Assembly (NCBI GenBank): GCA_035698005.1
Contig: DASSCD010000166.1
Coordinates: 1 to 29,333 of the forward strand
Direction of reading: 5' to 3'
DNA: 29,333 nt
DNA from: Gaiellaceae bacterium
GTDB taxonomy: Bacteria; Actinomycetota; Thermoleophilia; Gaiellales; Gaiellaceae
Below the pieces are notes generated by a model. The model made no database searches. It was not told the DNA's origin and was given only the letters and a program-made list of their open reading frames with translations. Made by a program: the position numbers and the translations under genes. Of this stretch, positions 8,386 through 13,608 are shown piece by piece. Within the stretch, counting starts at the first letter, position 1, and the number at the start of each line of letters is the position of its first letter.

Positions 8386-10092
8386 TTAGCGGACCTTCTC
8401 CTTGACCTGGGCCACCCACTTCAGCGACTGCAGGTACGCGAGCGACTTCGGACGGCGGAGAACCTCGGCCGTGCGCAGCGAAAGGAGGAACTCCTCCGGC
8501 CCGTCGAAGCGCGGCATGCGCATCGCGCCCGTGCCGACACCCTGCAGCACGTGCGCGTCGGAACCGGCGCCCTGGAGGAGCCGGTACTTGCGCGCGAAGC
8601 GCAGCGCCTCGTCGTTGAAGGACTCGCGCAGGAGGCGGGCATTGAAGACCTCGAAGACGTCGATCTCCCCGAGGTGGCGGTGGAGCGTCGCCGGGTCCGG
8701 GATCGCATGCATGCGATCGAACGGGTGTGGAAGGTAGACGAGGCCACCCTGGTCGCGGATCGCGGCGACCGTGTCCGCGAAGGACAGGCCGCGCGGAATC
8801 TCCTCCTCGAGGAAGAGCCCGATCACCTCGCCCTGGCCGTCCGTCTTCACCTCTTCGCCCGGGATCACGATCAGGCGCCGGCCGGCCGCGTGCTCGACCG
8901 CCTCGAGCGCGCCGCCGAAGGCGTTGTGGTCGGTCACGGCGATGCCGCCGAGGCCGATCTCCTCCGCGTGGTCGACGAGGTCGGCGGCTGGAATCGAGCA
9001 GTCGTGCGACCAGTCGGTGTGCATGTGCATGTCGACGACGACCCAGTCGCGCTCTGCGAGCGGGTCGTCGACGCGCGCGCCCCGCGGCTGGCGCCGCTTG
9101 CGGGTGAGCCCGGCGTACACCTCGTCCAATTGGGCCGCGACGACGTCGAACGTCTGTGCCTCTGCACGCCTGCGTCCTTCTTCCGCGAGCCGCGAGCGCT
9201 GCACGTCGTCCTGCACGAGCGCGACGACGTCGTCCACAGTCGCGGTCGCAGCCGCGCACGCGGCGGCCTCGAGCGCGAGACGCTCCTCCCCGTCCACGGC
9301 CGGGACGAAGATCGACGCCTCGCTCAGGATCGCGGCGCGCTGCTCCGGCGTCCGGATCGACCGGACGTGCGTCCGTTGGCGGACCGCGCGCGGGATGGCG
9401 GGGCGGTAGGCGAGCGGCTTCGTGTGCAGGAGGTGGAGCTCCCAGCCCGCGAGATCGGGGAGCGAGGCGAGCAGTGCGCGCGTGGCCGCCCGGCCCGCCA
9501 TCTCCAGCTCGACGGCGATCATGTTCCGCTTCCGCCGCGGCTGATAGACGTCGGGGTCGATGCCGAGCGCCACGAGCCGGTAGTCGCCCGCGAGCCGCTC
9601 GCGTGCGGCCGCGATCGTCTGCTCCGAGGTCGCGAGCAGGGCGTCGACGCGGATGCGGAGCCGGTCCCGGCGCGACCTCCGCGCGGGGTAGCCGACTCGC
9701 TCGGGCGAGAAGAACGTAGCCGCGGTCAGCGCGTCCGCCGTCGTGAGCGCGAGGTAGGACAGGCTCGGAAGGCCGGGCTCGAACCCGTGGACGACGTCGA
9801 AGCGGCCCCGGCGGAGCGCGAGCGCGAGGTTCGCGCGAACACCGACCGGGACGCCGATGTGCGTCCGGCGCGAGATCGGGATCGACGGGCCCACCGCGAC
9901 GACCTCCCGGTCGAGCCCACGCTGGAGGGCACGACGACCGTCGAGGAGATCGCGGGCCCGGGACGACGGCGCGACGACGGTGACCTCGTGCCCGAGCACG
10001 CGGAGTGCGCGAGCCGCCCCGTCGACGTGCGCGTTCACCTCGTGCGGCTGCGACCACGCGAACGGCGTGACGAAGCAGATCCTGAGGCTCAC
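8386..10092 (-). CDS. Fusion of a PimA-like GT4 glycosyltransferase domain and a C-terminal PHP phosphoesterase
   Basis: N-terminal RICFVTPF...GHEVTVVAP...FDVVHGFEPGLPSLS. PHP metal motifs DMHMHT, TDHN, GEE, HPF and GSDAH. TAACCT -10 box lies 7 nt before the GTG. Confidence 0.88.
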   Translation of the reverse strand: MSLRICFVTPFAWSQPHEVNAHVDGAARALRVLGHEVTVVAPSSRARDLLDGRRALQRGLDREVVAVGPSIPISRRTHIGVPVGVRANLALALRRGRFDVVHGFEPGLPSLSYLALTTADALTAATFFSPERVGYPARRSRRDRLRIRVDALLATSEQTIAAARERLAGDYRLVALGIDPDVYQPRRKRNMIAVELEMAGRAATRALLASLPDLAGWELHLLHTKPLAYRPAIPRAVRQRTHVRSIRTPEQRAAILSEASIFVPAVDGEERLALEAAACAAATATVDDVVALVQDDVQRSRLAEEGRRRAEAQTFDVVAAQLDEVYAGLTRKRRQPRGARVDDPLAERDWVVVDMHMHTDWSHDCSIPAADLVDHAEEIGLGGIAVTDHNAFGGALEAVEHAAGRRLIVIPGEEVKTDGQGEVIGLFLEEEIPRGLSFADTVAAIRDQGGLVYLPHPFDRMHAIPDPATLHRHLGEIDVFEVFNARLLRESFNDEALRFARKYRLLQGAGSDAHVLQGVGTGAMRMPRFDGPEEFLLSLRTAEVLRRPKSLAYLQSLKWVAQVKEKVR

Positions 10093-10135: not shown

Positions 10136-10339
10136 GTGGGCGGGGTGGAGATCAAGGTACGGAGGAACGGGCCGTACAAGGTCACCGGGCCCGCACGGGT
10201 GGTGGACGCCGCAGGCAACGAGATCACCTGCCCCGAAGGCGACGCGGTCGCGCTCTGCCGCTGCGGCAACTCGCGGACGAAGCCGTTCTGCGACGCGAGC
10301 CACAAGCGGGTCGGGTGGGTGGCCGACCCGCGTCGCTAG
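10136..10339 (+). CDS. CDGSH iron-sulfur domain protein (67 aa)
   Basis: NGPYKV...LCRCGNSRTKPFCDASH. TACAGT -10 box lies 6 nt before the GTG at 10136; alternative GTG at 10145. Confidence 0.9.
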   Translation: MGGVEIKVRRNGPYKVTGPARVVDAAGNEITCPEGDAVALCRCGNSRTKPFCDASHKRVGWVADPRR

Positions 10340-11040
10340 GTCGCCGCGCGGTTCGGGTTGCGGCGCAGCGCGAGGCGCTCGCCGGGAGCGAGGACGACCT
10401 CGAGCCCCTCGTTCGAGCGCGTGAGGACGAGCTGGACGTCGTCGAGCGCGGCGAGCACGCGCGCCTCCGGGTCGCTCGACTGTGCGCTACGGAATCGTTC
10501 GAGAACGGGCACGAGAAGGTAGGTCGCCCCGGTGAGGATCCAGATCACGGCGAGGGCCTTGCCCATGCTCTCCGAGGCGTTGCGGTCCCAGATCGCATAG
10601 CTGGAGAGCACAGCGGCCAGGGCTGCGAGGATGCCTGCGATCGTCGCGAGCGGCGTCAGCGACGCGGACTCAGCGAGCAGGCGCGCGGTCACTGCGATCA
10701 AAGTCGCGATCAGGAGGACCACGCCGGTCCACCCGTACCGCCAGGCATCGCCGCCACCGTCGAACACGAAGTCCCAGATCGCGTACGCGAGCAGTCCGAA
10801 GCCGAGCGGTGCGACGACGACGGCGACACGTCCGAGCAAGGCGTCGTCGCGGTCGACGAGCACGAGCCCCGAGACCAGCGTCCCTCCGGCCAGGAGGAGC
10901 GCTGCCAGCGTCGCGAGAATCCGGCCGTCCGTGTCCGAAAAGTCTCCGCGAAGCACCGCGGCGAGAGCGATCAGCGCGGCGACGACGAGCGCCGCCGCCG
11001 CGCCGATCCAGAACGTGCGCGCGAGGCGCCGGCGGGTCAC
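10336..11040 (-). CDS. Hypothetical multi-pass membrane protein (234 aa)
   Basis: [20 protein letters not shown]..., about six TM segments. GTGA overlap with the ino1 stop codon. Confidence 0.75.
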
Positions 11041-12530
11041 GCCTTCGCTGCCGCCTTCGTCTTCGCCTTGCCGACCGCGTTCTTCACGATGAAGCGCTCG
11101 ATGTCCTCGCGCGCCTCGTCGTCGCGGATCTGCTTCGGCGGCGACTTCATCAGGTATGCGCTCGGCGCCTCGAGCGCGCCCGAGATGCCGTTGTTCAAGG
11201 CCAGCTTCGCCAACCGGACGGCGTCGATGACGATCCCGGCCGAGTTCGGCGAGTCCCAGACCTCGAGCTTCAGCTCGACGTTGAGCGGCACGTCGCCGAA
11301 GGAGGAGCCCTCCATGCGGATGTACGCCCACTTGCGGTCGGTCAGCCACGGCACGTAGTCGGACGGGCCGACGTGCACGTTCCCGTCGCCGATGTCGTAG
11401 TCGAGCATCGACGTGACCGCGTTCGTCTTCGAGATCTTCTTCGATTCGAGGCGCTCGCGCTCGAGCATGTTGAGGAAGTCGGAGTTGCCGCCGACATTGA
11501 GCTGCATCGTCTTGTCGAGGTGGACGCCGCGGTCGCCGAACAGTGTCGTCAGCATGCGGTGCGTGATCGTCGCCCCGACCTGCGACTTGATGTCGTCGCC
11601 GATGATCGGGCAGCCGGCCTCCTCGAAGCGCTTGTGCCAGTACGGCTCGCGAGCGATGAAGACGGGCATGCAGTTCACCATCGCGACGCCGGCCTCGAGG
11701 ATCTGCTCCGCGTACCACTTCGTCGCAGCCTCCGAGCCGACCGGCAGGTAGTTGACGACGACGTCGGTGCCGGTCTCCTTCAGGATCCGGACGACGTCGT
11801 CGGTCGGGCCGGCCGCCTTCTCCACGACCTGCGAGAGGTACTTGCCGATGCCGTCGTGCGTCATGCCGCGCGAGACCGTGACGCCCGTCTTCGGGACGTC
11901 AGAGAACCTGATCGTGTCGTTCGGCTTCGCCCAGATCGCGTCCGCGAGGTCGACTCCGACCTTGCCCTTGACGACGTCGAACGCCGCCGTGAACTCGATG
12001 TCCGAGATGTGGTACCCGCCGAGGTCGACGTGCATGAGGCCCGGGACCGTGTCCTCGGGCTTCGCGTCCTTGTAGTACTCGACTCCCTGCAGGAGCGAGT
12101 TGGCGCAGTTGCCCACGCCGATGATGGCGACGCGCACCTTGTCCTTCGCGCGTGCGCCGTTCTTCGAGCCGTTTTGAGAAGCCATGAGCTCCCTTCCCTT
12201 GCGGTTGCTCCGCGCGGGGACGCCGAGACCGTCGGCGAGCGCGGCGAGGATGACGTCGTTCGCGTTGGAGTCGCGCCGCGACGCCTCCGCGTGGATCTCG
12301 TCCTTCAGCTCCTGCGGGACACGGAGGAATAGGACGGGGCTGCCGCCCGCGAGCACCTTGCGCCTGCGGCCGGTGGGCGTGTAGTCGAGGCCGAACTCGT
12401 CGGCGAGGATGCCGGCGGCGACGTCGTTGACGTTGGAGCCGCGGCGGGCCGTCTCGCGGACGAGCGCTCCCTTCAAGGGAGCGGGCATCCGCACCAGGAT
12501 ACCCGCCCTCTGCGTTTTGCTAGCAGTCAA
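11037..12530 (-). CDS. ino1: myo-Inositol-1-phosphate synthase with an in-frame N-terminal tandem ribbon-helix-helix region
   Basis: [54 protein letters not shown] and [11 protein letters not shown] match actinobacterial Ino1. No stop codon between the TTG at 12530 and the Ino1-like ATG at 12185. Confidence 0.93.
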
Positions 12531-12568
12531 AGTGCTAGCAGATTACCGTACGCCACCTCCGGGCGCAA
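12518..12568 (-). promoter_or_regulatory. Promoter and candidate operator of the RHH-ino1 gene
   Basis: -35 TTGCGC (12568-12563), 17 nt, -10 TAATCT (12545-12540). TGCTAGCA-N7-TGCTAGCA lies at 12518-12540. Confidence 0.65.
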
Positions 12569-12603
12569 GGACGGGCATCGCACGCATGCGGCGCTGTCTC
12601 GGC

Positions 12604-12880
12604 CTAGCGCGCGCGCAGCGCGCGGATCAGGCCCCACTTGCCCATCTCCGAGCGGCCGCGGATGTTGCGCTCCTGCGCGAGCTCGTAGAGCTGCTGGCGG
12701 ATCCGGTCCTCGAGCGAGCTGCCGGCGCGCGGCCACCGCGCCTCCTCGCCCCGCGAAGCCTGCTTGCCGAATCGCGGCGAGTGGCCTCGGGCAGATGCGC
12801 GATCGTCCTCTTGCTCTCGACGCCGACTGCGCCCGGCGGATGTTGCGCTTCGCGGCTTCCGTCTGCTCGCGTGTGGCCAT
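12604..12880 (-). pseudogene. Frameshifted small basic protein with a Rho-N-like C-terminal motif
   Basis: Three frames join into MATREQTEAAKRNIRRAQSAS / KRTIAHLPEATRRD / GKQASR...SLEDRIRQQLYELAQERNIRGRSEMGKWGLIRALRAR*. The 277 nt are 2 nt short of a 93-codon ORF. Confidence 0.75.
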
Positions 12881-12915
12881 GATGCCCTCTTCTCGTTCGT
12901 CCTTCACACCGGGCT

Positions 12916-12931
12916 GCCCGCTCTCGCGGGC
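12916..12931 (-). terminator. Short GNRA-loop hairpin after pgsA
   Basis: GCCCGC-GAGA-GCGGGC on the minus strand, 8 nt after the pgsA stop. No U-tract. Confidence 0.35.
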
Positions 12932-12939
12932 GCTCCACG

Positions 12940-13608
12940 TCAGCGCGCTTCGGCGAGCTCGCGGAGCTGGCGGCGGACGAAGAGCATCCGCTGGGTCACC
13001 GTCACCCAGACGATCGCCGCGAGCGCGTAGATCGGCCATTGCAGCCAGCCCCAGGGGGCGAGGCCGAGGCCGACGGAGATGAGGACCACCCGCTCCACGC
13101 GCGACCCGAAGCCGACGTCGCCGCGGAGGCCGAGCGACTCCGCCTTCGCCCGCGTGTAGGAGACGAGGAACGAGCCGATGACGGCGGCGAAGGTCGCGAC
13201 GAGGGCGATCTCGTTCCCGTCCCGCATGAAGGCGAGCCCGATCGCGGCGAGCATCGCGGCCTCGCCGAGGCGGTCGAACGTCGAGTCGAGGAACGCCCCG
13301 AAGACCGTGCCCTTGCTCGCCGCCCGCGCGAGGGCGCCGTCCAGGATGTCCGCGATCGACCCGACGACGAAGAGTGCGCCGCCGACCCAGAAGAAGAGCT
13401 TCTCGTTGCGGTCCTCGAACCCCACGAGCACGGCGCCCGTGAGACAGAGCGAGACGCCGGCGAGCGTGAGCATGTCGGGCGTCAGCTTCGTCTTCGCGAC
13501 GCCGCGCATCGAGCGCGCGAGGATCTCGCGCGCAGCCTGCGTGTACTCCTGCTTGACCTTGTCGAGTTGGCTGACCCGGGCCGGCTCGCGCGCGGGGTCT
13601 TCGCTCAT
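12940..13608 (-). CDS. pgsA: CDP-alcohol phosphatidyltransferase, phosphatidylinositol-phosphate synthase (PgsA1/PipS-like)
   Basis: LTPDMLT, family motif DILDGALAR...FGAFLDSTFD, and SYTRAKAESLG...RVER, which resemble mycobacterial PgsA1. ATGA overlap with the upstream gene. Confidence 0.9.
   Translation of the reverse strand: MSEDPAREPARVSQLDKVKQEYTQAAREILARSMRGVAKTKLTPDMLTLAGVSLCLTGAVLVGFEDRNEKLFFWVGGALFVVGSIADILDGALARAASKGTVFGAFLDSTFDRLGEAAMLAAIGLAFMRDGNEIALVATFAAVIGSFLVSYTRAKAESLGLRGDVGFGSRVERVVLISVGLGLAPWGWLQWPIYALAAIVWVTVTQRMLFVRRQLRELAEAR

Follow-up and report, generated by a model that had tools for sequence, protein, structure and literature searches.

A predicted tandem ribbon-helix-helix module fused to inositol-3-phosphate synthase in most Gaiellaceae, with candidate operator boxes at its start

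Why should a gene for inositol-3-phosphate synthase open with 115 codons of something else? The question is raised by a 29,333-nucleotide stretch of DNA from a Gaiellaceae bacterium (GenBank assembly GCA_035698005.1, contig DASSCD010000166.1, positions 1–29,333; hereafter the window), whose reverse strand carries an open reading frame (ORF) of 497 codons at 11037–12530. An in-frame stop lies four codons upstream of its TTG start (12530–12528), and exactly 115 stop-free codons precede the ATG at 12185–12183, just as an earlier note on this DNA, made from the sequence, had read it. That note took the upstream codons for a pair of ribbon-helix-helix (RHH) DNA-binding repeats joined to the enzyme Ino1. 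The fusion and the tandem RHH are, with near certainty, both real, and it is probable that in most Gaiellaceae the tandem RHH, a tether and a complete Ino1, all in one frame, form an autorepressing "trigger enzyme". The parts of the gene, here called RHH-ino1, are as follows.

12393–12509, reverse strand: RHH repeat 1, residues 8–46 (strand 8–14, helix 17–30, helix 34–45), placed by the AlphaFold2 model; ratio of nonsynonymous to synonymous substitution rates (dN/dS) 0.12
12336–12392, reverse strand: linker between the repeats, residues 47–65, holding a degenerate third box (see below), TGCTCGCG, at 12345–12352
12225–12335, reverse strand: RHH repeat 2, residues 66–102 (strand 66–72, helix 73–85, helix 90–102), placed by AlphaFold2, the repeat alignment and the YlcI/YnfO_N and PHROG matches
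12186–12224, reverse strand: flexible tether, residues 103–115, with the Shine-Dalgarno (SD)-like AAGGGAAGGGAG at 12189–12200; predicted local distance difference test (pLDDT) scores below 50 for residues 110–125
12183–12185, reverse strand: internal ATG, Met116, the proposed short-form start; invariant in 33 of 33 aligned orthologues and matching the N-terminus of 1GR0
11037–12182, reverse strand: inositol-3-phosphate synthase domain, residues 117–497 plus the stop (PF01658, 1GR0)

The 382 C-terminal residues (116–497) align end to end with residues 7–366 of the Mycobacterium tuberculosis Ino1 structure 1GR0 (E = 4e-149, about 60% identity), and Met116 thus corresponds to the canonical Ino1 start. 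1GR0, which has no N-terminal DNA-binding extension, is also the top Foldseek match of this part; the catalytic domain profile PF01658 is matched at E = 8e-36 and the Rossmann motif GVGNCA is invariant among the aligned orthologues. By profile and full-length homology the product belongs to the inositol-3-phosphate synthase family (MIPS/Ino1, EC 5.5.1.4). Its score against TIGR03450, the NCBIfam equivalog for mycothiol-type INO1, is 547.5 bits and lies under the cut-off of 638, and it is therefore assigned to the Ino1 family in general and not to the mycothiol equivalog in particular.

The two similar repeats that the note had pointed out are present: residues 11–48 and 67–104 are identical at 16 of 38 positions (42%) in an ungapped alignment with E = 2e-9. 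AlphaFold2 models the N-terminus as beta-alpha-alpha twice, with pLDDT values of about 85–90 from the single sequence and 86–94 with an alignment. Both N-terminal strands are assigned as such and the model contains no others, so they would pair with each other. The best Foldseek matches of this region in the PDB are F-plasmid TraY, AvtR and a permuted single-chain Arc (about 95–105 columns). The profile check that the note had suggested for residues 1–115 gave a divided answer. The window N-terminus itself reaches Pfam RHH_1 only at E = 0.13, below threshold, and YlcI/YnfO_N, also below the cut-off, at 6e-4, and matches a PHROG Arc-like repressor at 8.5e-5; its orthologues match known RHH families readily, with HicB found in 28 of 35 (best E = 8.5e-12), Arc in 23 (1.7e-9) and RHH_1 in 15, in addition to RHH_10 and FitA-like RHH. 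A profile of the orthologues reaches Mnt (0.003) and AmrZ (0.006) in the PDB, and a PDB sequence search with the single window N-terminus gave no meaningful match. The RHH assignment thus needed orthologues and structure prediction, because the window sequence alone matches RHH_1 weakly. With them, a tandem RHH of Arc/CopG/MetJ type, predicted to fold as a single-chain pseudo-dimer as the note had claimed, is supported. The strands xLVRMP and xLLRMP are nearly identical and hold one invariant Arg each.

How widely the fusion occurs bears on whether it is real. The N-terminal 115 residues are found in 20 of 24 genomes of the same genus, nearly always inside an open frame of about 500 amino acids, and the module is found in 92 of 120 Gaiellaceae genomes and 68 of 89 genera (the 92 include G081, G150, G153 and G156, flagged as unpublished; without them the count is 88 of 116). 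Of 40 sampled genera, 39 have the RHH part and GVGNCA in one frame, with RHH identity as low as about 36%, whereas the window query detected no module in any of 248 genomes from 11 other Thermoleophilia families. A single ino1, the fused copy, is present in each of five genomes of the genus, of which four are at least 92% complete. Across 71 loci of the genus, all six frame breaks fall within one set of metagenome-assembled genomes (MAGs; isolates MFD...), and other assemblies are disrupted only at contig ends. About a quarter of the family genomes have an unfused ino1, which lies directly behind a CDP-alcohol phosphatidyltransferase gene (the unpublished G068 was left out of the analysis). 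The lost stop codon or assembly error of which the note had warned is excluded, the architecture recurring in independent assemblies by the hundred; in relatives, too, the RHH part is continuous with the ino1 frame and is not a separate ORF. Sequence comparison shows the fusion to be old.

More than 600 such proteins stand in public collections, about 480 amino acids long, named inositol-3-phosphate synthase, annotated with PF01658 only and called from Met15. The architecture is unannotated in databases, its sequences being present but mis-started. The note's statement that the fusion was not known to have been described holds for the literature, in that a full-text search for RHH together with either enzyme name found no paper, the genome paper of Gaiella occulta does not mention ino1, and no PDB chain spanning both the RHH and Ino1 parts was found; it needs amending for the databases, where the proteins already stand unrecognised.

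Substitution patterns argue for translation of the upstream codons. In pairwise comparisons among 11 orthologues of the genus, dN/dS is 0.20 for codons 2–115, 0.30 for codons 2–12 and 0.18 for RHH repeat 2, beside the 0.12 of repeat 1; the enzyme part gives 0.17, a value slightly inflated by one sequence (L005) that is frameshifted late in Ino1. Insertions and deletions in the leader among relatives are in-frame only. Over 35 genera V13, R14, N35, D36, R55, L69, R70, P72 and N91 are invariant, and their codons vary, for example at V13, R14, N35, D36, L69, R70 and N91. By these comparisons the N-terminus is coding and under purifying selection. The conservation of codons 2–14 contradicts the Met15 call, with which strand 1 would be lost.

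Two features of the coding sequence may be recorded here. Within the genus the synonymous rate (dS) is low in RHH repeat 2 (12225–12335, codons 66–104), at 0.275 versus 0.84 in repeat 1 and 0.67 in Ino1, which suggests an extra constraint at the nucleotide level just 5′ of the internal SD, for instance an mRNA structure or an internal promoter. Reading the window and the genus alignment by eye revealed no TAnnnT-like element in this repeat, and the step in RNA depth described below is confounded; the short form might nevertheless have a promoter of its own. At 12485–12502 a palindrome or hairpin covers Gly-Ile-Leu-Val-Arg-Met-Pro codons (GCATCCTG..CAGGATGC in relatives), with the rare Arg codon AGG frequent. 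An RNA hairpin at the Ile-Leu-Val-Arg-Met codons looked compensatory in one relative, but its informative pairs are paired in only 44–72% of cases among 107 distinct sequences; most of the stem is explained by the Gly/Ser-Ile...Met-Pro codons, and the feature also occurs in a stand-alone homologue (L129). It was rejected.

If the N-terminus binds DNA, where might it bind? The region around the start contains the following elements.

12563–12568, reverse strand: possible −35 hexamer TTGCGC, 17 nt 5′ of the −10 element, from sequence reading; not conserved in relatives
12540–12545, reverse strand: putative −10 element TAATCT, of the actinobacterial TAnnnT type, called from conservation; box 1 begins with its last T
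12533–12540, palindromic: candidate operator box 1, the 8-bp TGCTAGCA, from motif counts and relatives
12528–12530, reverse strand: TTG, proposed long-form start and a conserved start codon, located between the boxes in their 7-nt spacer, with the −10 element 9 nt upstream and no SD
12518–12525, palindromic: candidate operator box 2, TGCTAGCA, 15 bp from box 1 centre to centre, from relatives

Together the boxes form a double palindrome, TGCTAGCA-N7-TGCTAGCA, on the −10 element and around the start, with TGCTATCA and TGATAGCA variants in other genera. In the upstream alignment conservation begins abruptly at TAnnnT, and sequences farther 5′ are unrelated between species; TAnnnT stands at the exact position in 71 of 71 genus loci with the double box and in most family loci. 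The 1.67-Mb genome holds three copies of TGCTAGCA, against about 11 expected from base composition, and two of the three are at ino1. The perfect double box occurs once in that genome and once in each of five near-complete genomes of the genus, always at RHH-ino1, so a wider regulon marked by it is ruled out and its uniqueness fits a dedicated autoregulator. Across 40 genera, 75 boxes of the form TG[CA]TA[GT]CA lie within −130 to +30 of the start, with all 40 fused loci represented, a density of 11.6 per kb compared with 0.09 elsewhere in the loci; eight unfused family ino1 loci, of about 4 kb each, contain none. In these sequences the boxes and the RHH module co-occur, related genomes being non-independent samples. 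The segment that the note had singled out for an electrophoretic mobility shift assay (12500–12570) proves to carry this conserved double palindrome. On this pattern autoregulation through the boxes is likely.

Many genera have a third box 40–60 bp upstream, inside the 3′ end of the preceding gene. In the genus of the window a third TGCTAGCA lies in the coding linker, spelled with the rare codons CTA and GCA, and is intact in 57 of 71 loci; the window's copy is the degenerate one at 12352–12345. Elsewhere in the window's genome, the remaining TGCTAGCA (contig C47, 1287–1294) falls in the last codons of a phosphoglucosamine-mutase-like (glmM) gene, about 95 nt 5′ of a glmS-like start, and may be a chance occurrence or a second target. 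Two of the unfused loci (L130 and L132) have inverted repeats of the TGCTAT–ATAGCA type 5′ of ino1 (TGCTATATAGCA; TGCTAT-N11-ATAGCA), which resemble box half-sites; no RHH module was found in their genomes. An Rfam search gave nothing relevant.

The position of the TTG between the boxes, and of a second start inside the frame, points to two protein forms. In the 71 genus loci the spacer codon is TTG in 67 and ATG in four, and never a non-start codon; locus L089 likewise has ATG there, and other genera place ATG, GTG or TTG at the equivalent position, 9–12 nt after TAnnnT and likewise without an SD. The mRNA would thus appear to be leaderless or nearly so, and we infer that initiation of the long form is inefficient. 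The internal ATG has the SD-like run that the note had reported (AAGGGAAGGGAG at 12200–12189, 3 nt before it), and SD and ATG are kept across about 40 genera: a GAAAGGA-type SD stands 4–6 nt 5′ of the ATG in nearly all of them while the encoded amino acids vary. In unfused relatives, ino1 starts solely at this ATG, behind an SD of the same type. That an SD has persisted so long within a linker of variable sequence is an argument for selection on internal initiation, from which we infer an abundant enzyme-only short form beginning at Met116. Two isoforms, a long one with RHH and enzyme and a short one with the enzyme, are likely on these comparisons.

Contigs from four soil metatranscriptomes were mapped on 10300–13100. 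Both inside the RHH part (12297–12432) and across the junction (12116–12264) there are RNA contigs identical to the window, and in all four runs depth is zero at 12556–12649, just upstream of the boxes. Such coverage fits a transcript beginning near the boxes and extending across both RHH and Ino1.

How would such a protein work? Predicted DNA-binding and catalytic domains share one ORF in 68 genera, with the junction bridged by RNA contigs. Each RHH pseudo-dimer would read one palindromic box. Ino1 is a tetramer in solved homologues, and a tetramer could gather two to four modules and so occupy two or three boxes cooperatively. Since the boxes overlie the −10 element and the start, a bound protein would hide both and so repress ino1 and the overlapping downstream gene. 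A rare long form would arise from the 5′-proximal TTG, ATG or GTG, most enzyme from the SD-led internal ATG, and the short form could mix into tetramers with the long one. Since both forms share one mRNA, the level of the repressor would track that of the enzyme, and the outcome would be homeostatic control of entry into inositol-lipid synthesis. That RHH-Ino1 also senses a metabolite (NAD(H), glucose-6-phosphate or inositol phosphate) is possible and rather doubtful. The same doubt attaches to a fuller version, a self-titrating, metabolite-sensing repressor in which the number of RHH arms per heterotetramer, together with an ordering of the core that depends on NAD(H) or glucose-6-phosphate, sets the occupancy of two or three boxes, and the captured cassette acts as an allosteric flux sensor.

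Several observations weigh against an autorepressing enzyme. The arrangement is dispensable, about a quarter of the family genomes having an unfused ino1 and no boxes at it, and the window's own match to RHH_1 stays below threshold. A scan for Escherichia coli-consensus promoters and terminators found nothing, and the −10 call is made from conservation alone. With a spacing of 15 bp, neighbouring boxes point to almost opposite sides of the helix, which is not the arrangement of the Arc and MetJ operators. TTG is a poor leaderless start, and very little of the long form might be made. As to the RNA, the contigs are unstranded and may include carried-over DNA, and conserved Ino1 sequence of relatives cross-maps and so confounds a 4–13-fold step in depth seen at the junction.

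Other explanations of the locus differ in how much of this they accept. The fusion might merely deliver the repressor and matter for regulation through co-expression alone: the long chain would be cut in the tether or be enzymatically irrelevant, all active Ino1 would come from the internal start, and the free RHH would be an autorepressor of TraY/Arc type. The predicted disorder of the tether, the strict conservation of the internal SD and ATG, and the existence of stand-alone tandem-RHH homologues of 110–135 amino acids that share a PFGGG tail with some fusions all suit this proposal. If the fused state did not matter, stops and frameshifts should be common, whereas about 70 genera have kept the junction frame free of stops even as RHH identity dropped as low as 36%; moreover, in several genera the tether extends just 4–5 residues past the last helix, which leaves little room for a processing site. 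We consider delivery alone unlikely. That the boxes serve another regulator or a plain promoter, with the RHH part having some other target or role (DNA sites elsewhere, nucleoid tethering or a protein contact), is less plausible still. The additional TGCTAGCA in the last codons of glmM, 5′ of glmS, and the box-like inverted repeats at two unfused loci speak for it; on the other side, boxes are present in 40 of 40 fused and 0 of 8 unfused loci, the double box is unique in each genome, and palindromic 8-mers suit a pseudo-symmetric RHH with near-identical strands and an invariant Arg in each.

Could the 115 codons be no protein at all? They might be an untranslated 5′ leader or a non-functional remnant, or be translated from Met15 only. 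Gene callers do start more than 600 homologues at Met15, and the TTG lacks an SD. Yet dN/dS is 0.12–0.30 in every N-terminal segment, codons 2–12 included, V13 and R14 are invariant through synonymous codon changes, distant orthologues have an ATG 5′ of the first strand, TTG and ATG interchange at one position, and a Met15 start would remove the first beta-strand, the partner of strand 2 in the models. This reading is very improbable. An assembly or sequencing artefact, a lost stop or a chimera, would be conceivable for a window taken from a fragmented MAG (205 contigs, 74% complete, 1.67 Mb), but it is already refuted by the occurrence of the architecture in hundreds of independent assemblies and samples, and 14 soil and rhizosphere DNA runs contain 82–92% of the sampled words of the stretch; its probability is negligible. 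An autorepressing RHH-Ino1 thus remains the reading that we prefer.

The surroundings of the gene bear on which pathway would be controlled. Its same-strand neighbours are, in order, a PAP2_3 protein, a CDP-alcohol phosphatidyltransferase, a small ORF, RHH-ino1, a membrane protein and a GT4–PHP fusion, and by sequence this neighbourhood points to inositol lipids. The gene that follows is:

10339–11040, reverse strand: downstream membrane-protein gene, 234 amino acids, without a Pfam match and with a GTG that overlaps the stop of ino1 (GTGA)

This overlap makes co-transcription and translational coupling with ino1 probable. The next ORF (8389–10092, reverse strand) combines a GT4 glycosyltransferase domain with a PHP phosphoesterase domain and might unite a mannosyltransferase with a phosphatase that acts in the phosphatidylinositol-phosphate route. 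On the other side, the C-terminal helix of the small ORF (12604–12903, reverse strand) very weakly resembles the Rho N-terminal domain (Rho_N, E = 0.085). This ORF stands between the transferase gene and RHH-ino1 in the lineage of the window and in L004–L006; in most other genera the transferase gene lies directly 5′ of the operator, with a box in its 3′ end.

Where did the module come from? An exhaustive search of representative proteins places it in a family of stand-alone tandem-RHH proteins of 110–135 amino acids, many with the PFGGG tail, and several fused genera have VPFGGG just before Met116. The one readable stand-alone context (L129) is phage-like, with RusA; no TGCTAGCA pair was found upstream at this one locus. 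From metagenomes, a 577-aa protein with the PFGGG-tailed module at its C-terminus and a doubled, four-repeat protein of 245 aa (P0102 and P0020) show the module joined to other partners elsewhere. The origin was probably an autoregulated tandem-RHH cassette of a mobile element which, with its own promoter and operator, was inserted between the transferase gene and ino1 and then lost its stop.

Among known systems, PutA comes closest in function, and TraY and AvtR come closest to the module in structure. The archetype of autorepressing trigger enzymes is PutA of E. coli and Salmonella, in which an N-terminal RHH is joined to proline dehydrogenase and P5C dehydrogenase. Like RHH-Ino1, it has its RHH at the N-terminus of the enzyme and operators in its own control region, where RHH-ino1 has candidate boxes. 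PutA differs in enzyme and pathway and in having one RHH per chain, which requires dimerisation, whereas in RHH-Ino1 two repeats of one chain would make up the DNA-reading unit and the gene keeps an internal SD and ATG expected to yield an enzyme-only isoform; the PutA switch, a proline-driven reduction with membrane binding, has no evident counterpart in RHH-Ino1. NikR joins RHH to a tetrameric metal-binding domain, and resembles the proposed arrangement in its tetrameric core with flexibly joined RHH units and in two operator half-sites separated by more than one helical turn; its core, however, serves regulation by sensing metal and is not an enzyme, each RHH unit is assembled from separate chains, and there is no second isoform. 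In F TraY, AvtR and the engineered single-chain Arc, two beta-alpha-alpha repeats in one chain likewise make a full RHH pseudo-dimer, and F TraY is a monomer that holds the whole RHH dimer fold (PMC12117103). TraY and AvtR are small stand-alone proteins (a relaxosome accessory factor and a viral regulator) without an enzyme, 15–25% identical to the module. Dedicated transcriptional control of ino1 for inositol-derived lipids has a precedent in Actinobacteria: in Corynebacterium and Mycobacterium ino1 is regulated by IpsA (PMC3899939). IpsA is a separate protein of the LacI family, whereas the proposed RHH-Ino1 regulator is of the RHH class and part of the enzyme.

Correcting the annotation matters in itself: the more than 600 entries that start at Met15 lose what is predicted to be the first DNA-reading strand. 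The double box offers a clear candidate operator of about 23 bp. RHH-regulated enzymes have, to our knowledge, essentially one textbook example, PutA, and RHH-Ino1 would, if the proposal is true, be a second case of independent origin, distinguished by a double RHH within one chain, a tetrameric enzyme as scaffold and an enzyme-only isoform made from an internal start. Its apparent origin, a mobile-type tandem-RHH cassette inserted ahead of ino1 and read through, shows how housekeeping genes may gain new control. In Gaiellaceae, a family of more than 89 genera in the genome collection, mostly soil MAGs, and one in which we know of no study of regulation, the control proposed here would concern the committed step of inositol-lipid synthesis.

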